A DNA stretch of 64,000 bases from a virus (lineage: Duplodnaviria > Caudoviricetes). Within the stretch, counting starts at the first letter, position 1; the number at the start of each line of letters is the position of its first letter. Location of the stretch: IMG/VR virus record IMGVR_UViG_2772190757_000004, positions 6,396 through 70,395 of that record. The stretch is one strand, 5' to 3'. The notes below the pieces were generated by a model that was not told where the DNA came from, ran no database searches, and saw only the letters and a list, made by a program, of their open reading frames with translations. A program made the translations under genes and the position numbers. Shown piece after piece: positions 2,854 through 54,921 of this stretch.

Positions 2854-2862
2854 CGCGCGCGT

Positions 2863-3210
2863 TTAGGTCTGGGTGTAGGTGATCGGGGCGACGATCTGGG
2901 ATTGCGCGCCGGGCGACTGGCTCGCGGACAGGGCGCCGCCATCGAGGTAGGTGCCGCCCGAGGACGCGGTCCACAGGCCCCAGTGGGTGTAGGTGCCCGC
3001 GGCGACGTCGAAGGTGACCGAGGTGCCGGTGACGGCGCCGCCGCTGGAGGTGCCCCAGGTGGTTTGCTTGCGCGCGTACGCGGGGCTGCCGCCTGTCGCT
3101 TCGTTCGCGCCGGTCGAGCCAGGGCTGCTGGTGTGCAGCGACAGCCACGTGCCAGCGCCCTTGTAGGCGTCACACATCGTGTTCTTCAGGCCGGTGGTGG
3201 CGATGGCCAT
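2863..3210 (-). CDS. Small tail fibre/structural subunit
   Basis: 115 aa with LSLHT..PG.TGANE..GGSPAYARK and THWGLW motifs typical of small actinophage fibre proteins. Confidence 0.75.
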   Translation of the reverse strand: MAIATTGLKNTMCDAYKGAGTWLSLHTSSPGSTGANEATGGSPAYARKQTTWGTSSGGAVTGTSVTFDVAAGTYTHWGLWTASSGGTYLDGGALSASQSPGAQSQIVAPITYTQT

Positions 3211-3211
3211 C

Positions 3212-3246
3212 GTTGTGTCCCTTCAGGATTCGCAGGCCCTGAATGG
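3212..3246 (-). promoter_or_regulatory. 35-bp leader hairpin with RBS, identical to the leader of the major tail gene
   Basis: mRNA CCATTCAGGGCCTGCGAATCCTGAAGGGACACAAC; stem TTCAGG/CCTGAA; exact copy at 15733-15767. Confidence 0.85.
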
Positions 3247-3254
3247 GGGTTAGG

Positions 3255-3566
3255 TCAGCCGATGCGGCGGAGGGTTCCGTAGAACCACAGGTAGTCGTCG
3301 GGGGTGTTCGGAAACTTCACGTAGCACCGGTAGTGGGGCCGGTCCGGCAGGGCGTCCATCGTGGTGGAGGTTTCAGCCCACGAGAACGAGGTGGTGTCGT
3401 ACGTGCCGTCGAAGGTGTCGAGGATGGTGGTGTTGTCGGTGTCGTACACCTCGATGCGCGCTTCGGTGTCGAGCGGAAACGTCGAGCCGCTGATCGAGGC
3501 GGTGAACACGAAGTCTGCGCCGATCCCGTTGTCGAGGAGCTTGTGGAACGGCGGCGTCTTCGTCAT
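3255..3566 (-). CDS. Minor tail protein (small beta-rich)
   Basis: MTKTPPFHKLL...GADF...LWFYGTLRR; ATGA-coupled within the tail cluster. Confidence 0.65.
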   Translation of the reverse strand: MTKTPPFHKLLDNGIGADFVFTASISGSTFPLDTEARIEVYDTDNTTILDTFDGTYDTTSFSWAETSTTMDALPDRPHYRCYVKFPNTPDDYLWFYGTLRRIG

Positions 3567-3886
3567 TCGGTCACCTCGGTGACTCCGAGGCTGAGCAGCG
3601 CCCACCGCCAGCCGTCGTCATCGTCGGCCGGCGCCGCATACAGAGGCTGCGAACCGGGGAGCTTCTTCATGCTCGGCCCGACCGGCGCGCCGCGCACCGG
3701 CTCGGCCGCATACACCAGCAGTTCGGGCAGTTGGTGGCGTGGCCGGCCGGGCTGCACGCACACCGCGACGTACTCGAATTCGCCCGCACCGTCGGGGTTC
3801 GGCAGCGGAGGACTCAGTTTGTAGCAGCGTGTCGGCCCCGGATAGATCCCCTGCACGAGGGGCACATGCACTGTCGCAGTTCGCAT
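3563..3886 (-). CDS. Phage hypothetical protein (tail region)
   Basis: 107-aa ORF tightly coupled to neighbours; YKLSPPL...EYVAV motif. Confidence 0.6.
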   Translation of the reverse strand: MRTATVHVPLVQGIYPGPTRCYKLSPPLPNPDGAGEFEYVAVCVQPGRPRHQLPELLVYAAEPVRGAPVGPSMKKLPGSQPLYAAPADDDDGWRWALLSLGVTEVTE

Positions 3887-4801
3887 TTACGCTCCCGCCG
3901 ATTGAATGACATACACCCGCCCCGAACCACCGACGCCGAAAGTGCCTGCGCTACCGCCGTCGCAGTTGCCTCCTGCGCCGCCGCCACCGCCCGGGCTGCC
4001 GCCGTTTCCGCCGTCGCCGCCGGAGCCGAAGATTCCGACGTCCCCGCCACCGGCGCCACCGCCGCCTCCCCCGCATGGGGTCAGCGATCCCGTCGAGACG
4101 CTGCCGCCGTCACCGCCGTCACCGGCCGCGCCGCCGCCGCCACTGCCGTCCGCGCCACCGGCGCCGCCCGCGGCGAGCGCCGTTGCGCCGCCGGGGAGTC
4201 CGCTGCTCGCGAATGCGCCGCCGTTGTTGCCGCCCGCGCCTGGTGCTGATGAGGACGACACCGCGCCGCGTGAGGTGAGGATCGCGCCGATCGTGCCCGC
4301 CGCCCCGACGAGGTAGGAACCGAACGACGACACGCCACCCGCTTGCCCGGCCGAGGTGCCCGGCGCGCCGACGGTGATCGCCACGGTGGACGGCAGGTCT
4401 GCGGCGTTGAATTCCTGGTAGGCATATCCGCCGTGTGTGCCGCCGAGCTTCTGACTGCTCGCGCCGCTGCCCGCCTGGCCTGCCTGGCCGCCGTTGATCA
4501 CCGCCACACCGATCCGGCCGCCTTGATTGACCCAGGTGTCATTGCCGGAGTAGACGGTCATGGTGCCGCCGTCTTCGAGTGCGACGATGCGGGTTTCGTG
4601 GTTGGTGATCGATCCGGCGTAGCCGGTGATCGGGGCCTTCACGTCGTTCTCGTAGATCTGGCGCGCGCCGCCGTAGGAGCCCTGCACGCCGCCATTCATG
4701 ATCGATTTCGCGGAGGCTTCGGTGAGGTCTTGGCCGTATCGCCACTCGCCACCGCCGCGGACCCACGCCTGATCTGGAGGGACGCCGCCAGGAGTTGTCA
4801 T
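3887..4801 (-). CDS. Glycine-rich minor tail protein
   Basis: MTTPGGVPPD N-terminus, ITVGAPG and long Gly-rich C-terminal tract ending GRVYVI. Confidence 0.8.
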   Translation of the reverse strand: MTTPGGVPPDQAWVRGGGEWRYGQDLTEASAKSIMNGGVQGSYGGARQIYENDVKAPITGYAGSITNHETRIVALEDGGTMTVYSGNDTWVNQGGRIGVAVINGGQAGQAGSGASSQKLGGTHGGYAYQEFNAADLPSTVAITVGAPGTSAGQAGGVSSFGSYLVGAAGTIGAILTSRGAVSSSSAPGAGGNNGGAFASSGLPGGATALAAGGAGGADGSGGGGAAGDGGDGGSVSTGSLTPCGGGGGGAGGGDVGIFGSGGDGGNGGSPGGGGGAGGNCDGGSAGTFGVGGSGRVYVIQSAGA

Positions 4802-5260
4802 TCACCCTCCGCCGCAGACTGGGTCACCGATCGGATTCGCGGCACGCTGTTGGTCCGCCGACACAGACCACACGCGATAGTCGAGAATTGCCTTCTGCGT
4901 TCGCTCACGGGAATCCGATTGAGGGTTTGAAATAGAGTCCGCGATGACACCCATCATTGTGTCGAGCTGCCGCTGGTTCTCCGTGGAGATCTTCGAGCGC
5001 GCGACAAGGGACTCACGAAATTCCCGGTTGCATTCAGCCTGTGCGGCGGACTGCATTCCGCCGTAGGCGACGCTCGCGACGCTCAGCACGCCGACGACCA
5101 CGAGCACGTAGGCTTGCTGCCGATCTGTGTGCGGCAAGGTCGGTGCGGCGATGTGCTTGTCGCCGAACTTGTACTCGCGCCACGACATCGACAGGCCAGC
5201 GAAGAACCCTATTCCGATGCAAGCTGTCCCGAAAAGCAATTGCAGAATCACGCTATTCAC
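4802..5260 (-). CDS. Lysis-cassette membrane protein (2 TM plus Cys-containing extracytoplasmic part)
   Basis: GTG start at 5260; hydrophobic VILQLLFGTACIGIGFFAGL and AYVLVVVGVLSVASVAY. Confidence 0.6.
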   Translation of the reverse strand: MNSVILQLLFGTACIGIGFFAGLSMSWREYKFGDKHIAAPTLPHTDRQQAYVLVVVGVLSVASVAYGGMQSAAQAECNREFRESLVARSKISTENQRQLDTMMGVIADSISNPQSDSRERTQKAILDYRVWSVSADQQRAANPIGDPVCGGG

Positions 5261-5480
5261 TGGGATCTGCCTTCTTCTTAGGCTCCTTGTTTCGGCTTGC
5301 CTGGTAGCGTGCGGCGCCCAAGAGCCCGAGTAGTGCGCCCATGATTCCATTCGCGCCCGTATTGCTCTCGTATGCTTGGAAAAGCAACGGGGCGACGATA
5401 TTCACTGCCCAGACAACGGTGACGATATAGACCAGAACTGTGAGCGTTCGCGTGGAGACGCCGTATTCAGGCGCGCCCAT
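5253..5480 (-). CDS. Small 2-TM membrane protein (holin-like)
   Basis: 75 aa, two hydrophobic helices, basic C-terminal tail. Confidence 0.6.
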   Translation of the reverse strand: MGAPEYGVSTRTLTVLVYIVTVVWAVNIVAPLLFQAYESNTGANGIMGALLGLLGAARYQASRNKEPKKKADPSE

Positions 5481-5537
5481 TTACCCCTCCTCGTAAGCCA
5501 CCTCCAGCCGAGCGCCTGGAGTAATCGAGTAGGGGCG

Positions 5538-5792
5538 TCAGTCCTCCAGGCGGCCAGCGGCGTCGCCAGCAGCATCGCCGCCCAACAGGCTCGGAGTGCT
5601 CCGGTTACCGAATCCGCTGGAGGCCATTGAAATCAGAACGCTGGCCAATGTCGCCGTCCCCGCGATGCTGAGCGCCGACGCCCAGTCGATGTCTGTGATC
5701 GCGACGCCAACCGTCATCGACGCCAGCAGTGCCTGCGCGAACGTTTTCCCGGCACGCTCCGCCGTGTCGGTCCAAAACTTTGCAGTCCTCAT
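5538..5792 (-). CDS. Holin (r1t-like)
   Basis: MRTAKFWTDTAERAGKTFAQALLA...IDW...ATLASVLIS; ATGA-coupled to lysin. Confidence 0.85.
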   Translation of the reverse strand: MRTAKFWTDTAERAGKTFAQALLASMTVGVAITDIDWASALSIAGTATLASVLISMASSGFGNRSTPSLLGGDAAGDAAGRLED

Positions 5793-6712
5793 TTCCCACC
5801 TCGCAGCAGGGAAAGGATCTCGTCGAGCTTGGACTCGCATGCGCGGACGCGGGCATCGGTGTCGAGCACCCAGCCGACGAGGGTCTTTTTCTCCGCGTTG
5901 TCGCCGACGCCTTCGAGGGTGAAGCCATCCCAGACGACGTTGTTCCACAGGTCGACCCACATGTCGTAGGGCCACGGCTGTTCCGGTGTCCGCGTCGAGG
6001 GTTGGACGTGCTGCTCGTTCTCGATTTGGCGAATCTTGTTGGGGAACGGATGCAGCTGCCCCGCCCCTTCGGCGACGATGTCTACCACGGGTGTTCCTCC
6101 TTGGATTCCGAACGAAGCCAGCAGATCTGGTAGTTCGAGGTCGGTGAAGTTCAGATCGACGCCACCCGGCCAGGGCGCGCACCGTCCGGAGTCGGTGTGC
6201 TGGTGCGCGAAATACCCGGAAGGCTTCTTCGCGGGGCTGCCCGGGGTGCGGCCGTAGGACGGCACCACCAGACGCATCCACGCCGGTCGGGTCGGCCAGA
6301 GGTCGAAGTTCGAAACGGGGTTCCAGTAGCCGATGACACGGCGGTTGTCGCCGTGCCAGCGAGCCAGCCGCTCGGCTTCGTCGTTCACTTCCGCGGACTG
6401 GTCACCGCGGATCACGCCGCCGGCGTCTTCGACGTCGATCATCGTGACCAGCCGCGGGTGCCCCCACAGTCCGGCTTCGGTGAGCTGATCTCTGTGGAGG
6501 TCACAGTTCATCTGCCCGGGCCGGAAGAAGTAGTAGGCGATGACCGCCTGCAGCTTCCCGCTGTCGAGCATGTCGCGGGCGCGGCGGGCGTTGACCTGAC
6601 CGAGGGTGTCTACTCGGTCTCCGGAGTTCGTGCGGAAGCAGAACAGCGGATGCGGGTAGGTGTCGTCGACCGGGATCCCTTGGTATTGGCTGACGTCGGC
6701 CCAGGCGGTCAT
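5789..6712 (-). CDS. Endolysin, GH25-like glycoside hydrolase gene
   Basis: WADVSQYQ, AYYFFRP, MIDVE, AHQHTD, GVDLN motifs. Confidence 0.8.
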   Translation of the reverse strand: MTAWADVSQYQGIPVDDTYPHPLFCFRTNSGDRVDTLGQVNARRARDMLDSGKLQAVIAYYFFRPGQMNCDLHRDQLTEAGLWGHPRLVTMIDVEDAGGVIRGDQSAEVNDEAERLARWHGDNRRVIGYWNPVSNFDLWPTRPAWMRLVVPSYGRTPGSPAKKPSGYFAHQHTDSGRCAPWPGGVDLNFTDLELPDLLASFGIQGGTPVVDIVAEGAGQLHPFPNKIRQIENEQHVQPSTRTPEQPWPYDMWVDLWNNVVWDGFTLEGVGDNAEKKTLVGWVLDTDARVRACESKLDEILSLLRGGK

Positions 6713-7269
6713 CGGGGCCACCTGGATGGCGGGATGAGCTGCATGAATCCTTCGACTACTCGCTGGCTGTACTGTGAGGCTGGCTCGGGCCCGTAGATGC
6801 CGAGGTGTCCGTCACGCAGACGGGCTGCGAATTCGGCGATCCACGGGTAGCCCTCTTCGTAGCCGATCTGGTAGTGCATCTCATCGGCTCGGTTCCAGTC
6901 GGCGCCCCAGAAGACGGTGCCTTCGAACAGCTTCAGTCCTGCACGGACTTTCGCGATCCGGGCTTGCGGCATCACCCGGCGGCCCCACGGATATTGCGGG
7001 GCGTTGAGGTCGATCGCCGTGCCTGAGAGGTGGTTGGAGTTGGGGACGTCGTTGGTGGCCGACCAGCCCCACACCGGGGAGACGATCTCCTCGACGTTGC
7101 GGTCGTACCAGACCATCCACGCGCCGAGGATGGTGCTCACGTCGCCCTTGCGGAGCGGGGCGGTATCGATGAAATGCAGAGGGACGGAAGCGATTTCGCA
7201 TTCGTTACGGTTGCACATCCGCCAGCCGTTTTCGCTGTGGGTGTTGCCGTAGACGGTGCGGAAGCTCAT
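6709..7269 (-). CDS. Endolysin, M15-family L-Ala-D-Glu peptidase gene
   Basis: MSFRTVYG..SENGW, SNHLSGTAID, WGADW..DEMH motifs. Confidence 0.85.
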   Translation of the reverse strand: MSFRTVYGNTHSENGWRMCNRNECEIASVPLHFIDTAPLRKGDVSTILGAWMVWYDRNVEEIVSPVWGWSATNDVPNSNHLSGTAIDLNAPQYPWGRRVMPQARIAKVRAGLKLFEGTVFWGADWNRADEMHYQIGYEEGYPWIAEFAARLRDGHLGIYGPEPASQYSQRVVEGFMQLIPPSRWPR

Positions 7270-7349
7270 CGCGGCCACCGAGCAAGCTGCAGCGCGAGCG
7301 AGACGATGGCCAGGATGAGCAGGACCAGGGTCATGGTGTCGTGATTCAT
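7266..7349 (-). CDS. 27-aa single-TM peptide
   Basis: MNHDTMTLVLLILAIVSLALQLARWPR; starts directly after the upstream stop and overlaps the lysin start (ATGA). Confidence 0.5.
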   Translation of the reverse strand: MNHDTMTLVLLILAIVSLALQLARWPR

Positions 7350-7757
7350 CTATGCGTCTCCGTTCACTACGCGCGCATGGTTCGGCGGTTCGGGGATCTC
7401 GGGGACGGCGCCGAGCGCGCGGGCTTGCTGGACGATGTCGTCGACCTCGTGCGGGGTCATCTCGGCGAGGTTCGGCAGGATCGGCAGGTCGGGTTCGGGG
7501 GTGTCGATCGGCACCCAGCGACCCATGCCGTTCATTGGATGCTGCTGCCCCCGGAAGGGACGCTGGAACTTCACGGTCTGCAACTCGGGATGGTGCCGGA
7601 ATCCGCAGTTCCACAATGCTTTTGCGAGATTCTTGGCCACGAACAGCGGCAGCAGTATCGGCGTCTGACCGGTCGCCGGCGGGCACACGAGCGCCCACAG
7701 GGCGTGCTCCTCGGGGTCGTCCATGTTGCATTCGGATTGGTGCGGGATGCGGGTCAT
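7350..7757 (-). CDS. Minor tail protein (DUF2744-like)
   Basis: IPHQSECNMDDPEEHALWAL...LWNCGFRHHPELQ motif. Confidence 0.8.
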   Translation of the reverse strand: MTRIPHQSECNMDDPEEHALWALVCPPATGQTPILLPLFVAKNLAKALWNCGFRHHPELQTVKFQRPFRGQQHPMNGMGRWVPIDTPEPDLPILPNLAEMTPHEVDDIVQQARALGAVPEIPEPPNHARVVNGDA

Positions 7758-7765
7758 GTCACCTC

Positions 7766-9946
7766 CTAGAGCACGCCCAGATCTTGGGCAATCGAGAGGA
7801 CGTCCTGGAGAACTTCGAGCGCCTTCAGGACGGGGTCTTCGAACTCCCGCTCGCCGACCTGAATCTTCCAAGCGGGCGCTTCGTCACGTGACGCCGCGAG
7901 GGTGAGTTCGGTGATGCGGTCGACGAACACCCGTCCGGCGGGCATACCCTTGACGGTGGTGCCGACGCGGTCACCGATGTCCATGTGCCCGAACCCGCGC
8001 GCCCCGACGAGGTACGGCGCGCCGTCAGCGACGACCACACTGTGGGAGGTCTGCTCGCGGGTCAGCCAGAACCCGGTCCGCAGAGCGATCAGGGCAGCGA
8101 GGCTGTAGGCGCGGTCAGCGCCGTCGCCCCACTTCTCGTGATAGTGGCTCCACCCCAACCGTTGTGCGCGCTCGGGCGACTTCCAGGACATGAAGGCCAA
8201 CAGGACGTCGGTGTAGAGCGGCTTGAGGATCGCGTCGAGGGTACCGCCGATGGGCGGGATGAACACCGCTGCAGCGATGAGGTCTCCGGCCGTGTTGTGC
8301 GACCAAACGCCGTTGCCCGAGTAAGTCACCCAGCCCGGAACGTGCATGTCGTAGAAGTCCTGGACCCCGACCGACCTAGCCGATACAACCGGTGAGTACT
8401 CGACAGCTCCCCCATCGGGCACTCCGATCCAGGCCGCGTCCGGCAGGTCGTCGTTGGGCGGGGCGATGTCGACCGCCGTCGCCGGACTTACTGCGGCTAC
8501 TTCGGTCCCGATCGCAGTCGCCCCGGCTTCTGCCCAGCCCGCCCGGGTCAGCCAGCGGTGCCGCGTCGTCGCGGTGATCGTCTGGCCGTTCGCGAGCGTG
8601 TACTCGAAGAGTTCGGTGCGGCCCTTCTTGAATGCGAAATCTGCTGTCGCGCCTACTCGCTCGCCATTGGGGGTCAACGCCCAGACGCGGAACGGGGTCC
8701 CTCGCGCGGCGAGCGCATCGATGCGCTCCTTGCCGTCGGGGCCATCGATGATCGTCTCCCCGGCCACGCATTGGATCGCTGCGCTGATGAGCTCGTTGAC
8801 GCCGGGCATCGAGTGCCCGCCCGTTGTCACTTGGACATCCGTCGCGGGCCGTTGCTTGAAGCTGGATGATTGCACGCCGATGCCGTGGCGCAGGATCACC
8901 CACGGCGCTTCGGGGAGGGTGCCCATCCATCCGGGCTGGGTGTACTCAACCGGGAACGACGGGTCGTTGATGATGTCGACACCCTCGGTGAGGCCGTCGG
9001 ATTCAATCGTGGTGAACGCCCGCACCAGCCCGGTGAGGAGGTTCCCGCCGAAGGATGTGCCGGTAGTCCAGCCGGACTTGTCGACGATGTCCCACACCAG
9101 GCAGCCGTGGCGCAGGTTCGCGCCCGGCCACGGTGGCGGGTCGCCGTCGAGGTAACGCCTCGCCACCCAAGACAGTTGCCCGTCCTGCATGATCCGCTTG
9201 GACATGTCGTAGGCGGATTTCATGCGCGAGAACGGGATCGCGAACGGGGAGTTGTCCTCGTCGATCGCGCCCGGCGCGACGACCATGCTCCAGGTGGAGA
9301 TGTCGAAGTTGAACCACTGCGAGGGGTCGAGCGGGTCGTCGGGGAGCATCCACAGCGACGACTCCAGGCGCATGATGTTCACCGCGAGGGTCAGCTTCAC
9401 CGCCCACTTCGCCGGCCCGAACATGAACCACAGCCGCGGGAACTGGATCTCGGCCGGTAAGAAAGGATTCGGCCAGCACCGGATGTGCTTGAGTTCTTCC
9501 AGGTCGTGCTTGAAGGTGATCTTCACCGAGGCGGTGCCCTGGTCGGTGAAGATCGTGTCGACCTCTTCCATGCGCCCGCCCCACCGCAAGCCGTCTTTGT
9601 CGACGGTGACGTGGATGCCGTACGGGTCGCGGTCGGGGTCCATCGCCCACTCGGCGAGGTAGTACTTCTCGCCCTTCGGCGTGTACATGGGGATCTCGAG
9701 GACGCCGATACCGGTCTCGTTGTCGAGGAGCTGCCACTCGCTACGGATCTCGTTGCGGACCACACCACGCAGCACCCAGTCGCCATCCCACAGCCGGATC
9801 AGCGGAGGCCGGATGCGGCGGAGTCTGCGCTCCCGTCGCTCGGCGACAGCTTGGGCGTGCACCGCGGTGAGGTCCTGCGGCGGGACCGAGGGAAACACCG
9901 ACTCCCCCGGGTAGACGTTCTCCCCAGGGTAGAGATAGGTGGGCAT
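7766..9946 (-). CDS. Minor tail/baseplate hub protein containing a mini-intein
   Basis: PPLIRLWDGDW, NPFLPAEIQFP, GGHSMPGVNE, GDRVG motifs; intein at residues 393-551. Confidence 0.9.
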   Translation of the reverse strand: MPTYLYPGENVYPGESVFPSVPPQDLTAVHAQAVAERRERRLRRIRPPLIRLWDGDWVLRGVVRNEIRSEWQLLDNETGIGVLEIPMYTPKGEKYYLAEWAMDPDRDPYGIHVTVDKDGLRWGGRMEEVDTIFTDQGTASVKITFKHDLEELKHIRCWPNPFLPAEIQFPRLWFMFGPAKWAVKLTLAVNIMRLESSLWMLPDDPLDPSQWFNFDISTWSMVVAPGAIDEDNSPFAIPFSRMKSAYDMSKRIMQDGQLSWVARRYLDGDPPPWPGANLRHGCLVWDIVDKSGWTTGTSFGGNLLTGLVRAFTTIESDGLTEGVDIINDPSFPVEYTQPGWMGTLPEAPWVILRHGIGVQSSSFKQRPATDVQVTTGGHSMPGVNELISAAIQCVAGETIIDGPDGKERIDALAARGTPFRVWALTPNGERVGATADFAFKKGRTELFEYTLANGQTITATTRHRWLTRAGWAEAGATAIGTEVAAVSPATAVDIAPPNDDLPDAAWIGVPDGGAVEYSPVVSARSVGVQDFYDMHVPGWVTYSGNGVWSHNTAGDLIAAAVFIPPIGGTLDAILKPLYTDVLLAFMSWKSPERAQRLGWSHYHEKWGDGADRAYSLAALIALRTGFWLTREQTSHSVVVADGAPYLVGARGFGHMDIGDRVGTTVKGMPAGRVFVDRITELTLAASRDEAPAWKIQVGEREFEDPVLKALEVLQDVLSIAQDLGVL
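8294..8770 (-). other. Mini-intein (159 aa, no homing endonuclease)
   Basis: Starts CVAGET (block A), TTRHRW (block B TxxH), FYDMHV (block F), ends WSHN with +1 Thr. Confidence 0.9.
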
Positions 9947-10399
9947 TTACGCGTAGGTCCCGGAGAACAGGATCGCCAGGCCGGTGCCGGGCGTGCCGCC
10001 TGGGGCCACGTCTGCGGTGAGGACGTCGTTCTGGGCGAGACTCACTGTGCCGGTCCAGGTTTGGTTCGTCGCCGGTTGCGCTACCGTGACCGTCGGCATC
10101 CCCGTCGCGGACCCGTTCTTCTTGATCGTGATCACCGTGGAGCCGCTGCCGTCCGCGGTGCCGAACCTCACCCGAATCCGGGTCAGCGTGATCCCCGCGG
10201 GCATCGCGATGCCCAGCGTTGCACCGTTCAACCCGGAGGCACGGGTGGCGGAGTTGGTGACGATCAGCTCATGCGCCCACGGCTTCGGCTGGGTCAGCGA
10301 CGCCTGATAGATCCCCTCCTCGATGTAGTTGAGTGCGTCGGCGTCGACCTCCGTCCCGCCGACCTCACCGTTGGCCCAGGTCTGCTTCGTGTAGGCCAT
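9947..10399 (-). CDS. Minor tail protein
   Basis: MAYTKQTWANG...ADALNYIEEGI N-terminal motif plus beta-rich domain. Confidence 0.75.
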   Translation of the reverse strand: MAYTKQTWANGEVGGTEVDADALNYIEEGIYQASLTQPKPWAHELIVTNSATRASGLNGATLGIAMPAGITLTRIRVRFGTADGSGSTVITIKKNGSATGMPTVTVAQPATNQTWTGTVSLAQNDVLTADVAPGGTPGTGLAILFSGTYA

Positions 10400-11307
10400 C
10401 AGCGCATCCCCCAGGCTCGGGTCCAGTTGCGGGCGCAGTGCACCAGCACCGTCGACCCGGTCGGCCCGTTGCAGGCGACCGGGAGATCAGTGGGCGGAGT
10501 CCACGGCGGGACGGGGAACAAGAACTGCACGCCGTTCATCAGCGACCAAAAGTTCGGTGTACCGGGCCGCACGACCTGCTCTTCGAACGGGTCGGTGTCG
10601 ATGTCGACCGCGGCACCGGAGGAGAGAGTGGGCATGACGATCGTGCGCGCCGTCGACGTGGCAGCCTGGTCTGCGATGTCGGCAGGCAGGTCATCGGCCG
10701 AGAAGGTCTCCGACCCGTACCAGGAGTAGTCCGGGAGCGTCCATGTCCCCGGCGCGGAGATGGTCCACTTCAGCCACATCGGCCGGTCGGTGGGATTGGA
10801 CACCGTCACTGTCCCGGACTGTGCGCCGGAGGCTTGCGATACCCAGGTGTCGGTGACATCGGCCTCCACGAACCACGGGATCCCCGCCCGGCACTGCATC
10901 TCCACTTCCACGTAACCGCGCTTGCCCGGGTCGCGGGCGAGCCCTACGCGGGGGGCTTCGAATGGCCGGCACGACAGGTGCCTTCGAGAGTTGGGGGTTT
11001 CGATCCACAGCTTCGAGTCCTGGCTGTAGGACCAGGCCTTGCGGAACTCCGAGTCCAGGTCCTCCCAGGTTTCGCCTTCGCCGCGGATGAACACCTTGAA
11101 GGTGACGTCGCGGGCGTCCCAGCGGACGCCGCCAGGGCTCGAGCCGAGCTGGAACGCGGTCTGGGTCCAGATGGTCCGCACTGGTGCATCGACGATGCCG
11201 TCGAGGGCGGTGAGGATAACGCCGCGGTCGCCCTGGCCAGGACCGTGCAGGCGGAACCACTCCCCGGTGTAGCTCTCGAGCTCGACAATCGTCGTAGCCA
11301 CCCTCAC
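10399..11307 (-). CDS. Distal tail (Dit-like) minor tail protein
   Basis: Immediately after TMP; VSNPTDRPMWLKW, WTLPD, IDTDP, FPVPPWT motifs. Confidence 0.85.
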   Translation of the reverse strand: MRVATTIVELESYTGEWFRLHGPGQGDRGVILTALDGIVDAPVRTIWTQTAFQLGSSPGGVRWDARDVTFKVFIRGEGETWEDLDSEFRKAWSYSQDSKLWIETPNSRRHLSCRPFEAPRVGLARDPGKRGYVEVEMQCRAGIPWFVEADVTDTWVSQASGAQSGTVTVSNPTDRPMWLKWTISAPGTWTLPDYSWYGSETFSADDLPADIADQAATSTARTIVMPTLSSGAAVDIDTDPFEEQVVRPGTPNFWSLMNGVQFLFPVPPWTPPTDLPVACNGPTGSTVLVHCARNWTRAWGMR

Positions 11308-14255
11308 CTCCTCACGAACGTGTTGGCCTGTGAACTACGGCGCCGGATCTCTTCCTGGATCGCCTTGGTCGTCCAGTCGAAGACGGCCTGCCCGATCGCC
11401 TGGATCGCGCCGCCACTGCGGCGCGCACCGAGGTCGGACAGGAACTGGTCGATGTTGGCGTTGACGAAGTCCGTGCCTGCCTGACTCATTCGGCCCGCGG
11501 CGTCGACCTGCTCGAGGGTCTGCACCCCCGGCGCCGAGGACGGCGGCGCTGATGACTGAGGCGCGAACGACTCCGCCGGCGCGGGCGTCACCGGGTTCGC
11601 ACCCCCGCCGCCGCTGCCGACGACCCACACCGGCACGACGCCAGCGGGTACCGCCACACCCCCGTAGGTGCCGCCGCTGGACGGCGCCGCGCTACCTCCG
11701 AGGCCGCCCGTACCTGCACCGGATCCGGGACTTCCCGCCCTGCTGCCCTGCGGGGTGTTGAACCCAGGTGCGCCGGACTGCCTGCTTGGGTCGTCAGTTT
11801 CTGGTGGAGACCACAGCTCGCGCGGCAGGTGCCAGACCTTCGGGAACGCGGCCGCCCCGTCCGCGCTGCCGCCGAACTGGATGCCGTTGGATCCGTCGGA
11901 TTCGACGTTGGTTCCGAGCAGTGTGCCGGCCATGTGGCCGTTGGTGCCGACGCCGCCGTTGGTGCCAATACTGAACCCGCCGGGGTCCATGCCCGGTTTG
12001 AAACCCAGGGCTGCGAAGTCCGATGCGGTGGTGAATCGCACAGACTGGCCCGTGAGCTGGTTGTAGATCCCCGAGAGGTAGCCCGAGCAGTCCAGCCCTC
12101 CATAGACGTACGGTTCGCCGTCGTGCGAACGGGCATAGTCCAGCGCGCGTTTGGATGCCAGGCCGCCGCCAGCGAACCCGGGGACCATCCCGTGCAACAA
12201 CTCGGGCGGAGGCACCCAGCCGCTGTTGATGGCGTCGAGGAACGGAATGGTTGCTGGGTTCGCGGCTTGGGCACGGGTGATGTACGCCAAATGCTCCCGG
12301 TTGGAGATGGCAATGATATTCGCGTCGTCGGTAGGGCCGCCGCGCCCATAGAACAGGCCACCGGCGGCGTACCGGCCACGGGGGGTGTTGCCGACGGTGA
12401 CCTGGTTGGTTTGCTGCGCGGGGTCGTTCGTGGTGTTGCCGTAGATGTCTACGAAACGGACCGTTACCTTCTGCTCGAGCGGGCGTCCGGTATTGGCGAC
12501 GATCCAGGCGTCGAGTTTTGCTTGAGCGTCTGCTGTCGCGGCGTTGACGACCACATCCTTGGTGCCAGGGATTTGGGTGACCTTGAGTCCCAGCGCCTCC
12601 AGACGGGCCGTTACCTCAGGGGTGTTCTCTTTGACGATGATGTCGTGGCCGTCAGGAAGCGCCGTGACCTGATCGCCGAGTGCCCTGAATACCTCCTGGG
12701 CGGCAACCGCCTGCTCGATATTGGAGGCGACCGAATCTCGCATTCGGTCCAGGCCGGGGCGGGTGGTGTTGTCGATCCCGTCTGCAAGGCCGATCGCGGC
12801 GTCGGCCGCTCCGTCCATCGTCGATTCGAGGTTTTGAAGCGTGTGGCCAAGATCTTCGAGGCCCTCGTTGCGGGTGAGCTTGCCGATGACCTCGGCGACT
12901 TTCCCGACAGGGTCGAGTAGGTGCTCGAGCAACGGTCCCACGCCCTCGGCGAGGGTCGCGAACGCGCGCAGGCTGATCGAACTGAATGACAGGAACGCGT
13001 CTGCCGTCGCGAACGCCCCGTCGGCGAGTTTCGCGAGGAAGGCCAGGATCTCCGGCTGGTGCTGGGTAACCCAGTCCGCAACTTTGGCCAGCTCCGGGCC
13101 AAACGCCTTCGCGAGCGCGGAACCGATCGCGTCGGTGCTTATTTGGATGGATCGCTTCGCGGATTCGATCGACGACGCAGCGTTGCCGCCCATGGTGTTC
13201 AGTGCGGATTGAGCGGCACCTTCCACCTTGCCCAGCGACGCAGCGGCGTCATCAAGGTTGAACTGGTTCAGCGCGTCGCCGAGGTCCTCGAACTGGGTTC
13301 CGAACAGCGCGAGAGCGATCGAATTCTTCTCGACCGGGTCTTCGATCTTGTTGATCTCGCCGAGGAGATCTCCGACTGCCGCGCGCGCGGTGGCGCCGCC
13401 GGTCGCGAATCGTTTCGTCAGGTCGTCGGCGTTGAAGCCGAGGGTTTGGAACGCCTCGACCGTGGATTTCGAACCGTCCACGACGCGGATGCTGAACTCC
13501 TTGATCGCGTCCGCAGCAACGTCGGTGTCGCGAGCGCCGGCGAGAACCGCCTGGTTGATCAGGCCGATCGCCTCGGGACCGCTTAGGCCCAGTTTGCGGA
13601 ACTGCGTACCGTATTCGGTGATGGTGTCGAGGAAGTCCTCGCTGACGTTCAGGCCGTTCTGTTCGGCCGCGGCGAACAGGTCGAAAGCCTCGGTGGCCGA
13701 CCCGGCGATGCCGGTCTTGATCGCTTGGCCTGCGGCGCGGGCGACCGCGGGGATCTCCTCGCCCATCAGGTCCGAGATGCCGCTCAGCTGCGAAATGACC
13801 GCTTGGGTCTCCTGCGCGGTGGCCGAGGAGTCCAGCAACCCACTGTTGATCGCGCGGCGAGCGGCATCGATGTTCTCTTCGACGCTGTTACCGAAGTTCG
13901 CGGCGTAAGCGCGCCCGGCCGCAGTGCCGATCTTGGCCATGGTCGCGTCGTCGATGCCCAACCGTGCTTGGGTGAGATCCAGGGCCTTTTCGCGCCGCAG
14001 GCCGTCGCTTAGCGCTTTGACGAACAGTCCGCCAGCGCTGACGCCTGCCACTGCCATGGCCGTGCCGAGTACCGCGCCGAACGCACCCGCCTTGCCCTGT
14101 AGGCCCTCTAGGATCCCCCCGCCGGCGGCCTCGCCGCCGGCGCGGCCCGCGCGCTCGCCCGCCCGGCCGAACGCCTGGTCCAGTTGGCGTGGGATCCCCG
14201 CCGTTTCGGCGCTGACGGTGACGTACCCGTGGGCTAACTGCACGCCACCGGCCAT
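11304..14255 (-). CDS. Tape measure protein with C-terminal NlpC/P60-like domain
   Basis: 983-aa Ala-rich helical protein; FLDTITEYG, DVAADAIKEF, ALFGTQFEDLG; YVYGGLDCSG...GHMAGTL. Confidence 0.92.
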   Translation of the reverse strand: MAGGVQLAHGYVTVSAETAGIPRQLDQAFGRAGERAGRAGGEAAGGGILEGLQGKAGAFGAVLGTAMAVAGVSAGGLFVKALSDGLRREKALDLTQARLGIDDATMAKIGTAAGRAYAANFGNSVEENIDAARRAINSGLLDSSATAQETQAVISQLSGISDLMGEEIPAVARAAGQAIKTGIAGSATEAFDLFAAAEQNGLNVSEDFLDTITEYGTQFRKLGLSGPEAIGLINQAVLAGARDTDVAADAIKEFSIRVVDGSKSTVEAFQTLGFNADDLTKRFATGGATARAAVGDLLGEINKIEDPVEKNSIALALFGTQFEDLGDALNQFNLDDAAASLGKVEGAAQSALNTMGGNAASSIESAKRSIQISTDAIGSALAKAFGPELAKVADWVTQHQPEILAFLAKLADGAFATADAFLSFSSISLRAFATLAEGVGPLLEHLLDPVGKVAEVIGKLTRNEGLEDLGHTLQNLESTMDGAADAAIGLADGIDNTTRPGLDRMRDSVASNIEQAVAAQEVFRALGDQVTALPDGHDIIVKENTPEVTARLEALGLKVTQIPGTKDVVVNAATADAQAKLDAWIVANTGRPLEQKVTVRFVDIYGNTTNDPAQQTNQVTVGNTPRGRYAAGGLFYGRGGPTDDANIIAISNREHLAYITRAQAANPATIPFLDAINSGWVPPPELLHGMVPGFAGGGLASKRALDYARSHDGEPYVYGGLDCSGYLSGIYNQLTGQSVRFTTASDFAALGFKPGMDPGGFSIGTNGGVGTNGHMAGTLLGTNVESDGSNGIQFGGSADGAAAFPKVWHLPRELWSPPETDDPSRQSGAPGFNTPQGSRAGSPGSGAGTGGLGGSAAPSSGGTYGGVAVPAGVVPVWVVGSGGGGANPVTPAPAESFAPQSSAPPSSAPGVQTLEQVDAAGRMSQAGTDFVNANIDQFLSDLGARRSGGAIQAIGQAVFDWTTKAIQEEIRRRSSQANTFVRR

Positions 14256-14268
14256 GTGATCACCTCAC

Positions 14269-14831
14269 TCACTGGTCCCAGCCGAGCCAGGCATCCATCT
14301 CGTCGATTGGGAGCGGATCTGATCCGATGGCGCGAAGGTCTTCAGGTATCGAGTCCGCGGCCATTCGCTCTCGCCGGACTCGCACGACGGCCGAGGGGTC
14401 GTGCAGGTGCTTGAGCCAGCATTTGAACTCGAACCACGACAGGCGGTCTCCCAGGTCGTAGAGATGTAGGCCGCGGTCGAGCAGGTCGGCGACGATCGCC
14501 TCCTCGTGTCCGTTTATGAACTCTCGGAGGCCGAGGATTCCCCCGTGCTCACCTTCGAGGACGCACCCCAAGCCGCGTAGAGGTCGGTGATCTGGTCGCG
14601 CGAGAGACGTGCCTCGTGCAGTTTCTTGCCCAGGTCGGGGTCGAAGCTGGCGATGAATCCGATGACGAACCGGTACATCGACAGGCCTTTGCCGTTGACC
14701 TCTTCGAGGTAGTCCTCTGCTTCGGCGGGAATGAATTCCAGCTTCGGCACGGAGACGGTCTCGTCTCCGAGTTTGAACTCGAACCGGTTCTTCTTCAGTC
14801 GAGCACCGGCTGCGGGGATTTCGAACACCAT
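14269..14831 (-). CDS. Tail assembly chaperone G (14514-14831) and G-T fusion via -1 frameshift
   Basis: 105-aa ORF between major tail and TMP; slippery GGGGGAA at 14538-14544 leads into GILGLREF...WLGWDQ ending at 14269. Confidence 0.88.
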
Positions 14832-14834
14832 TGG

Positions 14835-14911
14835 CTCGCAGGCCCTTTCCTTGTCGCAGGCCCGAGGGCCCGGTGGCGCGGCGGGCCTGCGAGGTAGACC
14901 GCGCCACCGGG
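14835..14911 (-). promoter_or_regulatory. Structured intergenic RNA element (13-bp hairpin whose loop complements two downstream repeats)
   Basis: Stem 14869-14881/14899-14911; loop motif 14882-14893 complementary to 14854-14864 and 14835-14845, which flank RBS AAGGAAAG. Confidence 0.75.
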
Positions 14912-14918
14912 GTTTTCG

Positions 14919-15728
14919 TTACGCGTAGGTGACCGAGAGGCCGGCGCTGGGACCGGTCGCGTTGGTCACGACGACGTTGTAGGAGCCCGCGCTCTTCGCG
15001 GGGGTGATGATCGCCAGCGTCTGGTCGTTGTAGATCTGGAAGTCGCCCACCGCGGTGCCACCAACCGTGGCCGCAGTCGTTCCGACGAAGCCGGTGCCGG
15101 TGAGGATCAACAGCTCACCGCCTGCGGTGGCGAGGTTGCCCACGGGTTCGCGCGAGGTGATGGTCGGAGCCGCCGCCGCCGCGCCGTTGTCGTAGTAGCG
15201 GTAGACCTTGACGCCGTTCTCGTCCTTGTAGCATTCGAGGGTCACGTCGAAAGCCATCAAACCGTTGCGCACGATCGGGTCTTCAGCGACGCCGGTGATC
15301 TGGCCGAGGGGAACAGCGAATCGGGCGCGTTTGCTGCCGTCCTTGATATCGAAGACCCAGGGGTGGATTTCGAGGGGTTCGCCGGTTTCCTCGACGGTGG
15401 TCAGCGACCCAACGGTCGTTACGTTGTCCTCGTGGAAGACCTCCGACAGGACGTCAGGGTCGTAGACGGCGTACAGCTTGAACTGGAACTGGGCGGAGTG
15501 GTTCTCTTGCGGGCTGGCGATGAGGTCGCCTGCCCAGTCGTAGATAGGTGTCGAGCTGCGTTCACCGGACGGGCGCAGGCCATCGTCTGCGACGTAGCCG
15601 AGCTTGGTGTAGCTCGCGGTTGATCCCGTGACGCCGGTGGGGAGCGCGGTCCCTGCGGCGGCGACCAGGACACCGCCGGTGGCCAGCGGTGCGCCTACGC
15701 CGATTCTGGCAACGGAGTTTCCGGCCAT
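14919..15728 (-). CDS. Major tail tube protein with C-terminal IPT/TIG Ig-like domain
   Basis: LGYVADDGL, IYDWAGD, GQIT motifs; C-terminal PTITS..GG..LILTGTGF...NVVVTN. Confidence 0.9.
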   Translation of the reverse strand: MAGNSVARIGVGAPLATGGVLVAAAGTALPTGVTGSTASYTKLGYVADDGLRPSGERSSTPIYDWAGDLIASPQENHSAQFQFKLYAVYDPDVLSEVFHEDNVTTVGSLTTVEETGEPLEIHPWVFDIKDGSKRARFAVPLGQITGVAEDPIVRNGLMAFDVTLECYKDENGVKVYRYYDNGAAAAAPTITSREPVGNLATAGGELLILTGTGFVGTTAATVGGTAVGDFQIYNDQTLAIITPAKSAGSYNVVVTNATGPSAGLSVTYA

Positions 15729-15732
15729 TGTT

Positions 15733-15767
15733 GTTGTGTCCCTTCAGGATTCGCAGGCCCTGAATGG
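15733..15767 (-). promoter_or_regulatory. 35-bp leader hairpin with RBS of major tail gene
   Basis: Identical to 3212-3246. Confidence 0.85.
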
Positions 15768-15799
15768 ATAACTTGCTGACCCTCCGTTGCCGGGGGAGT

Positions 15800-16198
15800 T
15801 CAGATCAGTACGCCGCCGATGAGCAGGTCGAGCGTGAATTGGTATCGGGGGCCGACGTCATCGGGGAAGTTCGCCGGTCCCGACACGGTGACGACATGGG
15901 CGACCCACGCTGGTCCCGCCGATTCGCCTTCGGCGGCACGCATAAGCGCGTACGAGAGCCTGGCCAGACTCGCGCAGGCCGGTTCGTCCGCCGCCCAGCA
16001 CTCGAAGATCAAGCGTGAGTAGAAATGACCTCGCGTCTGCTCAAGTGTGTCGGCAAGAGAGACGCGGACCATGCGCTCCGGGCGGACCGGTGGCACCTTG
16101 GTGGCGACTTTCGCCGTCTCGCTGCGCACAGCGAAGGCGGCTTTCAGGTAGGCGACCGCGGCGGCCTCGGCGTCAGCAGGTGCGACGACCTCACCCAT
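15800..16198 (-). CDS. Tail terminator
   Basis: Position before major tail; LIFECWA, GPANFPD..PRYQFT. Confidence 0.8.
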   Translation of the reverse strand: MGEVVAPADAEAAAVAYLKAAFAVRSETAKVATKVPPVRPERMVRVSLADTLEQTRGHFYSRLIFECWAADEPACASLARLSYALMRAAEGESAGPAWVAHVVTVSGPANFPDDVGPRYQFTLDLLIGGVLI

Positions 16199-16460
16199 TT
16201 GCGGCACCGAACGCCCGCACGAGCGTGTTGTCTTGCGCGTTCTGTCTCATCGCCACTGCGGTAGCCGCGAAAACAGACACCTGCCACCGGCCTTGGGGGC
16301 TCTTAGCTCCCTGACGAGACGACATCATGTATCCCGCAGCTTCGCCGCCCGCAGCCCCCAGAATTGCGCGACCGCGCCGCTCGAGGTCCTGCCGGACGCC
16401 GGGTTCGCTGCGGATCTTGTAGAGGGCGTCCCGTTTCATGACCAGGCGGAAGTTAGCCAT
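16191..16460 (-). CDS. Head-tail connector (HK97 gp10-like position)
   Basis: 89 aa, NAQDNTLVRA C-terminal motif. Confidence 0.7.
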   Translation of the reverse strand: MANFRLVMKRDALYKIRSEPGVRQDLERRGRAILGAAGGEAAGYMMSSRQGAKSPQGRWQVSVFAATAVAMRQNAQDNTLVRAFGAANG

Positions 16461-16656
16461 CGCTGATCACCTCGCTCGGTTTGATGACCTGCACCTCCGC
16501 GCAGGCGATCGTGATCGTGACCCCCGGATAGACACGTCCATCCGGGGCTTCGGCGATCGTCGGCTCCACCCCCGCGTACGAGAACGGGAACGGCTCACCA
16601 TCGAAGAACATCTCGTTGGTGTCGAGGTCGATCAGGACCCGCGGTAGCCCGCTCAT
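16453..16656 (-). CDS. Hypothetical protein, paralogue of 24636-24830
   Basis: RVLID..DGEPFPF..P.IAEA..VTITI pattern. Confidence 0.6.
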   Translation of the reverse strand: MSGLPRVLIDLDTNEMFFDGEPFPFSYAGVEPTIAEAPDGRVYPGVTITIACAEVQVIKPSEVISDG

Positions 16657-16988
16657 CCGTCCACCCGTTGCAGGTTCACCGGTTTACGGCCGGGCTTCCA
16701 CCACGGGCCGTGATCGTAGTCCTCGGGGAAACCGATCACATCGAACTCCTCGCCGTCGATAACGAGCAGATCGTGAGGCCCGATCTGCTCGTCCGAATCG
16801 ACGACAGCGACCATGTCGACAACGACACGGTCGTGTCCTGCCACGGCTGGTTCGGTGGACGAGGGCGAGTAGTAGAACGCCTGGATGTCCACCGCCGCGG
16901 CGTGGGAGCCGATCTCGTTGCCGTGCGCGTCCTCCCCCGACCCGGAGTACGCGCGATGACCAATCGTGAACGGCAACGGGATCGTCAT
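16653..16988 (-). CDS. Head-to-tail stopper
   Basis: GEDAHGN, IDGEEFDVIGFPEDY.HGP motifs. Confidence 0.8.
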   Translation of the reverse strand: MTIPLPFTIGHRAYSGSGEDAHGNEIGSHAAAVDIQAFYYSPSSTEPAVAGHDRVVVDMVAVVDSDEQIGPHDLLVIDGEEFDVIGFPEDYDHGPWWKPGRKPVNLQRVDG

Positions 16989-17371
16989 GACATCGGCACG
17001 TTGAACGCCGCCGAAGACCCCGCACACAGGGTCCGCAACAGTGAACGGTCGGTCTTGTTGATCCACGGCCCGCCCTGCGAGGAGCTCGCCGAGTAGCTAC
17101 GGCTCATCGAGAACGGGCCCGCGGTGACGCTGGAGGAGTCCACACCAGGCTGCTGCTGGTCGGTTACCTGCAGCACTCGGGCCGCCATTCGCGACACCAC
17201 CAACGTCACATTCGACGGAGTGGGATCGGCGATGGTGCAGCCACCCTCGTGGAACCAGGCTTCGACCAGCGCCGAGGCTTCATCGAGGAGCCCCGGCAAC
17301 CGGCCTTCTTCCTCAGTCGTCAGACTTCGACCGAGACGCGCTTCGACGTCGGCCTGTGCTGCCAGTGCCAC
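16985..17371 (-). CDS. Head-to-tail adaptor
   Basis: ALAAQADVEARLGRSLT, LLDEAS, VTAGPFS. Confidence 0.8.
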   Translation of the reverse strand: MALAAQADVEARLGRSLTTEEEGRLPGLLDEASALVEAWFHEGGCTIADPTPSNVTLVVSRMAARVLQVTDQQQPGVDSSSVTAGPFSMSRSYSASSSQGGPWINKTDRSLLRTLCAGSSAAFNVPMS

Positions 17372-54876: not shown

Positions 54877-54921
54877 CCTACCGTGCGGGCCACGCGTCAG
54901 GATGTGATGTGACGGACACTC

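Follow-up and report, generated by a model that had tools for sequence, protein, structure and literature searches.

A shared leader at two tail genes

How the dosage of tube, chaperone and fibre proteins is set from one long late transcript is, to our knowledge, poorly understood beyond the G/GT frameshift. The question is raised by a Nocardia siphophage-type prophage (IMGVR_UViG_2772190757_000004, positions 6,396 to 70,395; this whole stretch of 64,000 nt is called the window below), in which two tail genes are preceded by the same 35 nt. The fibre copy lies 12.5 kb downstream of the tube copy, and both contain the sense motif M, GGGCCUGCGA:

15733..15767, minus strand: 35-nt leader module of the major tail tube gene (hairpin 15740-15767, M 15751-15760, Shine-Dalgarno (SD) sequence GAAGGGA 15739-15745 in the 3' arm); homologous leaders in 29/30 related loci
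14919..15728, minus strand: major tail tube protein gene, 269 aa (phrog_117, E 8e-37; Pfam Phage_TTP_17 and TIG)
3255-3605: LtfC-like gene preceding the fibre gene (PF23926; phrog_240 is listed with the fibre/LtfC-like pair)
3212..3246, minus strand: identical 35-nt leader before the gp80-like fibre gene (hairpin 3219-3246, M 3230-3239, SD 3218-3224); absent in 29/29 homologous genes elsewhere
2863..3210, minus strand: gp80-like small fibre protein gene, 115 aa (PF23140 'Podophage GP4 fiber I protein gp80', E 5.9e-14)

The leaders are identical at 35/35 nt, as an earlier note on this DNA had reported, and its naming of the two genes agrees with their Pfam and PHROG matches. At up to three mismatches the 35-nt sequence matches the window twice, with 0 matches expected (100 shuffles). 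Both copies read CCATTCAGGGCCTGCGAATCCTGAAGGGACACAAC in RNA sense, followed by the ATG at 3210 or 15728. RNAfold predicts the same hairpin in each: a UUCAGGG/UCCUGAA stem with a CC/GG extension, an 8-nt loop CCUGCGAA, and the SD GAAGGGA in the 3' arm. A UUCAGG/CCUGAA stem overlapping this ribosome-binding site (RBS) had already been described in the note. The stability of the hairpin is modest (-12 to -13 kcal/mol) and only moderately above that of shuffled sequences: 5/200 and 9/200 shuffles fold equally well, and in longer contexts the z-scores are only -0.46 and -0.51. M occupies the apical part of the tube-leader hairpin, about 8 nt upstream of the SD, which it does not cover. A GNRA hairpin is found upstream of the tube leader, outside the copied 35-nt unit.

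GGGCCTGCGA occurs exactly five times in the window, on the minus strand at 3230, 14836, 14854 and 15751 and on the plus strand at 14883, against 0.51 copies expected, and 0/100 shuffles reach five. In the mRNA four copies are sense, at three translation starts, and one is antisense, in a hairpin loop. One-mismatch variants show no enrichment (10 vs 11.7 expected). The host genome (9.38 Mb) contains 43 copies vs about 86 expected from base composition, and the 38 beyond the window are scattered at a density at or below chance. The prediction that a genome-wide count would place the motif only at tail leaders thus holds within the prophage. Related prophages carry 2-4 copies, around the tube gene only. 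Two known kinds of repeat were considered for this set and set aside: a SAS-type motif (about 13 bp, at the RBS of at least about ten genes), compared with five copies at three genes and one-mismatch variants at chance level, and a stoperator or operator array (many asymmetric sites dispersed over the intergenic regions of an entire phage genome, all oriented alike relative to transcription), compared with five copies at three tail-gene leaders only, one of them inverted.

A hairpin with an antisense loop before the chaperone gene

The antisense copy and the two remaining sense copies are located between the tube gene and the tail assembly chaperone gene:

14869..14911, minus strand: intercistronic hairpin with a 14-bp stem, directly after the tube stop; the stem covaries in relatives (10/13 pairs)
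14882-14898: 17-nt loop of this hairpin, with anti-M, UCGCAGGCCC in RNA, at 14883-14892, abutting the 3' arm
14854..14863, minus strand: M1, the first sense copy of GGGCCUGCGA, 6 nt after the hairpin
14836..14845, minus strand: M2, the second sense copy, overlapping the 3' end of the chaperone SD AAGGAAAGGG
14514..14831, minus strand: tail assembly chaperone G gene, 105 aa (phrog_8595 aligned from residue 1)
down to 14269, minus strand: frameshift extension of the chaperone in an overlapping frame (phrog_3656/1326 in the second frame)

The claim that the leader motif is complementary to the loop at 14883-14892 is borne out: the plus-strand copy sits in the loop of the 14869-14911 hairpin and is complementary to the leader motif at every position. 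The note had missed the two sense copies on either side of the chaperone RBS (14836-14863). M2 ends 4 nt before the chaperone ATG (14829-14831), and the loop is complementary to it, which gives a segment of the same RNA that could mask the downstream RBS, as in MS2. Anti-M itself is within an untranslated loop past the tube stop codon, not inside an upstream reading frame. A Rho-independent terminator was also considered for this hairpin; the sequence after the stem, read in the sense direction, is GCCCUCGGG, which has no U-tract, and no terminator-like site was called there.

Elements of 10-13 nt on the 5' and 3' sides of the tube gene are complementary to each other, an arrangement of the icaR/hbs type that in this prophage takes the form of a 10-nt exact complement. 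The predicted energy of the loop-leader duplex is -22.3 kcal/mol vs -12 to -13 kcal/mol for the leader hairpin; pseudoknots and kissing loops are outside the predictions of the folding tools used.

Putative pairing device

Judging from the sequence, we lean towards reading the element as an RNA-RNA pairing device that acts in cis within the late (tail) transcript of the Nocardia prophage. The very stable hairpin between the tube and chaperone genes would display the 10-nt anti-motif on the 3' side of its loop to four M sites of the same transcript, two at the chaperone RBS (M1 and M2) and one in each leader (tube and fibre). Together with M2 the loop would most likely form an H-type pseudoknot stacked on the hairpin stem, and with the chaperone start hidden in this way the chaperone would be made in smaller amounts than the tube protein. 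The loop would also be contested by M1 and by the copies in the leaders. A leader that paired with it would lose the top three base pairs of its own hairpin, and its SD could thereby become accessible. The fibre gene, having the duplicated leader, would come under the same control or would at least use the same translation start region.

Pairing in vivo and the direction in which it moves translation are what we infer here. Such a device would co-regulate the translation of tail genes and probably sets the amount of each tail protein made. The loop may also act in trans after transcript processing.

Conservation and concerted change

Thirty related Nocardia prophage loci were collected by the tube protein alone (41-69% identity). 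In 29/30 of them the leader has GGGCCTGCG(C)A and an antisense copy is present in the loop of a post-tube hairpin; the sole locus without the leader motif, L035, lacks the antisense copy too. A 5'-3' complement of 9-13 nt was registered in 24/30 loci over the 130 nt tested, and further comparison extended this to 29/30. One locus (L184) has an extra gene inserted after the tube gene, and its hairpin still adjoins the chaperone gene.

The motif is invariant within a lineage and changes in concert between lineages, as the earlier note had asked of related phages. The leader, the loop and the first chaperone-leader copy of G497 read GGCCCGCGA, and the second reads GGGGCCCGCAA, so that the T->C change is found in all four. 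GCGA stands in both the tube leader and the loop of G000 and G486, and GCGCA at both places in the 26 other motif-bearing loci. Distant Nocardia tube lineages have other pairs: CAGGCCCGGTCC / GGACCGGGCCTG, GGTYYGGTC / GACCGGACC and GCCAGG / CCTGGC. Further pairs are found in Mycobacterium phages Jolie2 and Mercurio (CCCACCAG / CTGGTGGG), Arthrobacter phages Abidatro, Andrew and LittleTokyo (GGCCCCCG / CGGGGGCC) and Microbacterium phage Icarian (GGCTCCCG / CGGGAGCC). Of the cultured actinobacteriophages examined, seven have a spacer between the tube and chaperone genes, and six of these show the layout. At the corresponding position Gordonia phage Keelan has a plain terminator. The loop (antisense) copy is the best conserved copy of the motif, and the loop-chaperone pairing is the most widely conserved part, with the tube-leader partner present in some lineages only.

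The sequences, their complementarity, their conservation and their concerted change are established, and the architecture conserved across Nocardia prophages and Mycobacterium, Arthrobacter and Microbacterium phages looks like one device, re-coded in each lineage. Of the two halves of the earlier proposal, a kissing-loop or an RNA-binding-protein network, the first is favoured because the loop and its targets change together, and the second is argued against because the hairpin copy is antisense in the mRNA.

Energy, covariation and geometry of the proposed pairing

Cognate loop-target duplexes are predicted to be stronger than cross-lineage ones. The duplex of the loop with the chaperone leader beats loop shuffles in 14/14 lineage representatives (0-24 of 1000), and that with the tube leader does so in the eight representatives that make up groups A, A' and B (0-29 of 1000). 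If the loop is defined more generously, the test weakens for Jolie2 (227/1000) and Abidatro (129/1000). A strict test of Watson-Crick-only runs finds the match between hairpin and RBS significant in only 12/41 loci. In the large group of 41-48% identity the M2 pairing needs a G.U, and the start-proximal copy often departs from the perfect complement by a C->U change that retains a G.U pair (24/29 rows at one column, and also groups B and C, Abidatro and Andrew).

In 14/14 representatives 0-2 nt separate the end of the anti-motif from the stem's 3' arm, as required by an H-type pseudoknot. Compensatory changes in 10/13 pairs of the hairpin stem, with 98.4% of cells paired, indicate that the stem is under structural selection. 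For the two-helix structure (stem and loop-M2), 0/500 shuffles reach the observed covariation score. Within the 41-48% identity group two-sided change is seen in only 1/9 pairs of the loop-M2 helix, and in the leader hairpin in 1/6 pairs, so the covariation rests mainly on comparison between lineages that are unalignable. Concerted change of all copies would also be expected if a protein co-evolved with its binding sites.

Origin of the fibre-gene leader

In other Nocardia genomes 0/29 homologous fibre genes have a tube-type leader; plain AGGAG leaders are found there instead. No homologue of the fibre gene was found in the 20 and 40 kb examined of the two closest prophages (G486 and G497). 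The copied unit is exactly the hairpin, SD and spacer, without coding sequence and without the upstream GNRA hairpin. Both genes begin with ATGGCC, a possible recombination junction. The fibre-gene leader looks like a recent, lineage-specific duplicate of the tube leader. The alternative offered in the earlier note, a copied leader, was right about its origin, and since no homologue carries it, the fibre-gene leader does not count as a conserved part of a network.

The link of the fibre gene to the pairing device may be neutral. The second copy could lack regulatory meaning and be a mosaic by-product of acquisition of the fibre module by an illegitimate recombination in which the tube leader was used by chance; the copy would then be too recent to have diverged and would serve only as an ordinary RBS. 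The perfect identity, the shared ATGGCC start, the plain leaders of the homologues and the absence of the gene from the regions examined in the closest prophages all fit such an origin, and we regard this account as possible, if doubtful. The copied unit, however, resembles a functional module, and there would be little sense in taking over a leader with a hidden SD if no opener were present; neither point is decisive.

Alternative explanations of the motif and hairpin

The post-tube hairpin might instead be a U-less protective or terminator-like stabiliser of the tube message, giving more tube protein than downstream products, with the leader hairpin as a 5' stabiliser and the loop complementarity incidental or secondary. 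Strong GC-rich hairpins are commonly placed 6-25 nt past the stop of the most abundant tail protein, compensatory change conserves the stem and not the loop alone, and Keelan has its terminator at this very place. However, invariance is not expected of the loop of a protective hairpin, and neither is complementarity to 2-4 leader sites close by in at least eight sequence versions; the stem also lacks a U-tract and a terminator call. As a full explanation this is unlikely; as an added role, stabilisation is compatible with the pairing device.

Less probable still is that the copies are double-stranded DNA sites of a sequence-specific protein (operator- or stoperator-like, or a late-gene regulator) forming lineage-specific pairs, with orientation irrelevant. 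Several copies clustered within 60 bp, a distal copy about 0.9 kb away and concerted change between lineages, as with operators between immunity groups, would suit such a protein, which could also tolerate one inverted copy. Yet the inverted copy always adjoins the 3' arm within the loop of a long hairpin whose stem covaries, and the sense copies are on ribosome-binding sites, with the leader copies inside SD-sequestering hairpins. The start-proximal deviations are C->U changes that keep G.U pairs. We found no copies of M at promoter-like sites, and the prophage has only the five.

Autoregulation of translation by a sequence-specific RNA-binding protein (e.g., the chaperone or tube protein) on the sense leader motif would account for four sense copies at three translation starts and for invariance within a lineage, but it is very improbable, as the best conserved copy, in the loop, is antisense and would escape recognition, and homologous tube and chaperone proteins are accompanied by very different motifs.

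Comparison with known systems

In the kissing loops of plasmid copy-number and toxin-antitoxin systems, a structured loop of at least about 7 nt pairs rapidly near a translation start. The putative device likewise would present an antisense in a structured loop to a target near the start; those antisense RNAs are separate transcripts acting in trans, whereas the loop described here is part of the same polycistronic message. Searches of Rfam gave 0 matches at E<=1 for positions 2500-17000 of the window and one unrelated sub-threshold match (E 0.99) for 7 related loci, and no report of a tube-chaperone antisense-loop device was found in the literature searched.

The proposed pairing of the loop with M2 resembles the Min Jou interaction of MS2, in which, as described, the RBS of the next cistron is covered by a complementary stretch far away in the same RNA and masking sets the ratio of an abundant structural protein to a scarcer product (PMC11339067). 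In that description the MS2 segment is inside the coat reading frame and is opened by translating ribosomes, whereas here the candidate segment is an untranslated hairpin loop past the stop, with up to four partners, in the late operon of a dsDNA phage.

The complementary elements on both sides of the tube gene are similar to those of icaR (Staphylococcus aureus) and hbs (Bacillus subtilis), where a 3'-side motif is reported to pair with its own 5' leader, affecting translation initiation, RNase III cleavage (icaR) or RNase Y access (hbs, a 14-bp interaction) (PMC3868564, PMC5737220). The icaR motif, according to its report, pairs with the SD itself, whereas M is upstream of it; as the hairpin that sequesters the SD carries M near its apex, opening of the site, not closure, would be the likelier effect of pairing. 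Unlike the 3' elements described for icaR and hbs, the one found here also targets the next cistron.

SAS/ESAS motifs of Cluster K mycobacteriophages and Cluster EF Microbacterium phages are described as conserved short motifs at or near the RBS of a subset of genes, SAS at about ten genes per genome and aligned with the 16S rRNA 3' end (PMC7302621). M is likewise an unusually conserved short motif at the RBS of some actinobacteriophage genes. It differs from SAS in its few copies at few genes and in its antisense partner, a complementary hairpin loop not being part of the SAS description drawn on here.

Implications for tail-protein dosage

We tentatively speculate, and the odds are against it, that actinobacteriophage tail operons use a lineage-specific RNA 'address code'. 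One structured antisense loop after the tube gene would serve as a hub, reciprocally masking the chaperone start and unmasking hairpin-locked starts of high-copy structural genes; stoichiometry would be set without a protein factor, and new genes, such as the fibre gene here, would be plugged in by copying the 35-nt leader. The identical second leader may show such wiring of a newly acquired gene into the circuit. If true, RNA pairing that needs no protein would explain tail-protein dosage in general, directly testable by compensatory mutations in phages that grow on laboratory strains, and the device would also offer actinobacterial synthetic biology a compact, orthogonal part for controlling translation.

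Motif copies in the tail operon

The genome containing the window is 9.38 Mb long and has 68% G+C. According to the gene annotation, its structural genes form a siphophage-type operon:

748-23508, minus strand: the whole operon, opening with terminase, portal, scaffold, capsid, connectors and tail terminator
14919-15728, minus strand: major tail tube protein gene, after the tail terminator
14514-14831, minus strand: tail assembly chaperone gene, after the tube gene, with a second frame down to 14269
Past the chaperone, minus strand: tape measure, minor tail proteins, lysin A and B, then the last module
3255-3605, minus strand: LtfC-like gene, last module
2863-3210, minus strand: gp80-like fibre gene (115 aa), last module
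748-2853, minus strand: 701-aa repeat protein gene, last module, directly after the fibre gene, no Pfam/PHROG match

The two identical 35-nt leaders to which the earlier note had drawn attention (3212-3246 and 15733-15767) are unique in the window and occupy, on the coding strand, most of the short gaps preceding the ATG codons of the fibre and tube genes. As the note had proposed, both fold into the same hairpin, with the SD in the 3' arm and CCUGCGAA as the loop. With up to three mismatches allowed, the 25-nt core of the leader has two copies in its own genome; across 401 family genomes, only four further hits were found, all with three mismatches and at a chance-like level.

The motif GGGCCTGCGA within the leaders occurs five times in the window (0.5 expected). 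The whole genome holds 43 copies, about half of the number predicted from base composition, 38 of them scattered outside the window, and the clustering inside it is real and non-random. The complementarity to a hairpin loop that the note had seen was also found: the fifth copy is inverted (the anti-motif, 14883-14892) and sits in the loop of a 14-bp hairpin which begins a few bases past the tube gene stop. The leader and loop copies thus stand as described earlier, while two more sense copies had gone unmentioned: M1 (14854-14863) and M2 (14836-14845) lie directly past the hairpin and flank the chaperone SD, the second ending 4 nt before the ATG.

Neither a sigma-70-like promoter nor a U-tailed terminator was called at any of these elements. 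The opposite strand of the hairpin has a weak U-run, but most of it is complementary to the stop codon and an A-run, and it varies among relatives, so an antisense terminator was rejected. A separate small hairpin with a GCAA (GNRA-type) tetraloop, CCCGGCAACGGG, is located at 15780-15796 (minus strand), between the tail terminator stop and the 35-nt leader. It is retained in the two nearest prophages, G486 and G497; the other lineage has a different covarying hairpin (GACUCC..GGAGUC) in the same place.

Conservation in Nocardia prophages

The tube protein, used as the sole query against 151 Nocardia genomes, found matches in 56 of them, from which 30 loci were retrieved. In 29 of these loci the tube ATG is preceded at 25-35 nt by GGGCCTGCG(C)A, with CCC..GGG and CCC..GGGAG segments on its sides that can form the same SD-hiding hairpin; past the tube gene, a long hairpin carries an antisense copy of the motif in its loop. 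L035, the sole exception, has neither the leader motif nor the antisense copy. The post-tube stem is maintained by compensation: in the alignment of relatives, two-sided changes are seen at 10 of its 13 pairs, with 98.4% of cells paired. The covariation score of the two-helix structure as tested was matched by none of 500 shuffles, and the loop segment is invariant. In 20-40 kb contexts of seven relatives, all exact matches to the motif pattern that have this leader or loop context are located around the tube gene; a few further pattern matches are in unrelated contexts.

A conserved CAACTGAATA box is found about 15-25 nt upstream of the leader hairpin in loci L011-L037 and also in L198, L211 and L218; in related prophages it precedes many tube leaders and some leaders of gp80-like genes. 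It may serve as a promoter or as a signal for processing. No repeats of it were found elsewhere in the 20-40 kb prophage contexts, and a wider role was rejected.

No isolated phage is close (best tube protein identity 35%), the IMG/VR search for close tube protein relatives gave a single weak locus, a peptide-pattern search of genome contigs gave none, and DNA megablast of positions 2800-16300 against phages matched lysin A fragments only. Residues 183-269 of the tube protein, its C-terminal TIG/Ig-like domain (14919-15200, minus strand), are 56-76% identical to the tube C-termini of loci L189-L195, while the N-terminal parts of those proteins align much more weakly, which suggests domain exchange. 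The G+C content falls to 0.55-0.59 at 52001-56000 from about 0.65 elsewhere in the window; this stretch could mark the end of a prophage or be inserted foreign DNA.

Re-coding between lineages

Whether related phages change all copies in concert had been put forward as a check, and they do so: loop and targets change together in G497, G000, G486 and the distant lineages. In G497 (65% identity) T->C is shared by leader, loop and both chaperone leader copies. GCGA is present in both tube leader and loop of G000 and G486, and GCGCA at both places in the 26 other motif-bearing loci. More distant Nocardia tube lineages keep the architecture with other sequences:

First distant lineage: leader CAGGCCCGGTCC, loop GGACCGGGCCTG, and GGCCCTGTCC / GGTCCGGTCC before the chaperone ATG
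Second distant lineage: loop GACCGGACC, GGTYYGGTC at the chaperone start
Third distant lineage: loop TTTCCTGGC, two GCCAGG copies, the second inside the SD

In one locus (L184, genome G493) the tube gene is followed by an additional stretch of about 1.1 kb, apparently one more gene, and only then by the hairpin and the chaperone gene, which remain adjacent. Seven of the nine cultured phages examined have a tube-chaperone spacer; in Cracklewink and prophiT37-1 the two genes overlap. In six of the seven (Jolie2, Mercurio, Abidatro, Andrew, LittleTokyo, and Icarian) the chaperone start is preceded by between one and three copies complementary to the loop, and Keelan has a plain U-tailed terminator instead.

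Energies of loop-target duplexes are block-diagonal by lineage. The loop-chaperone leader duplex was reached by 0-24 of 1000 loop shuffles in all 14 representatives. For the duplex with the tube leader the figure is 0-29 of 1000 in eight representatives (lineage groups A, A' and B); of the other six, one gave 16 and five gave 225-617 of 1000. A strict test, which scored nothing but unbroken runs of Watson-Crick pairs joining the hairpin part to the final 35 nt of the spacer (significance at no more than 25 of 500), could be applied to the 41 of 57 loci with a definable spacer and was significant in only 12. It is weak because the start-proximal copy of the large group (41-48% tube identity) reads GGGUCUGCG and requires one G.U pair. 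Groups B and C share this C->U deviation, as do two Arthrobacter phages (Abidatro and Andrew), and Icarian has A-U at the corresponding position; the recurrent G.U is informative in its own right. With looser loop definitions, Jolie2 and Abidatro lose significance. Since two-sided changes within the large group are few (just one in the loop-M2 helix and one in the leader hairpin), the case for pairing rests mostly on re-coding between lineages.

The second leader at the fibre gene

Homologues of the fibre gene are present in 42 of the 151 Nocardia genomes, including the window's own. None of the 29 fetched from other genomes is preceded by the motif or by the hairpin; all have ordinary AGGAG leaders. 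G486 and G497 have no fibre gene homologue in the 20 and 40 kb examined, and their tube leaders differ from that of this prophage at many positions. The fibre gene leader is thus likely to be a recent copy of the prophage's own tube leader, which bears out the copied-leader alternative of the earlier note in the form of a lineage-specific duplication. What was duplicated is precisely hairpin, SD and spacer. The copy may be functionally linked to the loop; that it is a neutral by-product we consider less likely than not.

The terminal fibre module is set apart from the other tail genes: the lysin A / lysin B cassette (5789-7731, minus strand) and a membrane protein gene (4802-5350) come between it and the minor tail genes. 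The 701-aa protein contains at least seven tandem 54-nt repeats (18 aa, IAASGSGT..VT-like) and is probably a repeat-built fibre or adhesin.

Comparison with known systems

Rfam has no family matching positions 2500-17000 or the seven related loci, and a literature search found no description of such a device. The closest principles are the Min Jou interaction of MS2 and the 5'-3' UTR pairing of icaR and hbs, and the closest descriptive class is the start-associated sequences of actinobacteriophages, whose function is unknown; the device lacks defining features of each. It is therefore classed as cis-acting long-range RNA pairing belonging to none of them, and is putatively a new form of it.

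Proposed mechanism

The anti-motif adjoins the 3' arm of the stem with a gap of 0-2 nt in all 14 representatives, and, when the loops are compared by inspection, a longer complementary run tends to go with a longer 5' remainder of the loop. This arrangement corresponds to H-type pseudoknot geometry, with the second helix stacked on the first. M1 would be a competing site for the loop. The tube leader would join as an additional partner in groups A, A' and B, where the motif spans the loop and the three uppermost pairs of the hairpin that has the SD as its 3' arm. At a predicted -22 kcal/mol, the loop-leader duplex is stronger than the leader hairpin (-12 to -13 kcal/mol), so pairing could open the tube start or bring the two ends of the tube cistron, 5' and 3', together.

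The network co-regulating tail subunits envisaged by the earlier note survives in part: the RNA-pairing reading is well supported by the comparative evidence, and the conserved target is the chaperone start rather than the fibre gene. Pairing with M2 would bury part of the chaperone SD and spacer, so the device can be read as a built-in attenuator of chaperone versus tube translation, the directions of both effects being what we infer from the model.
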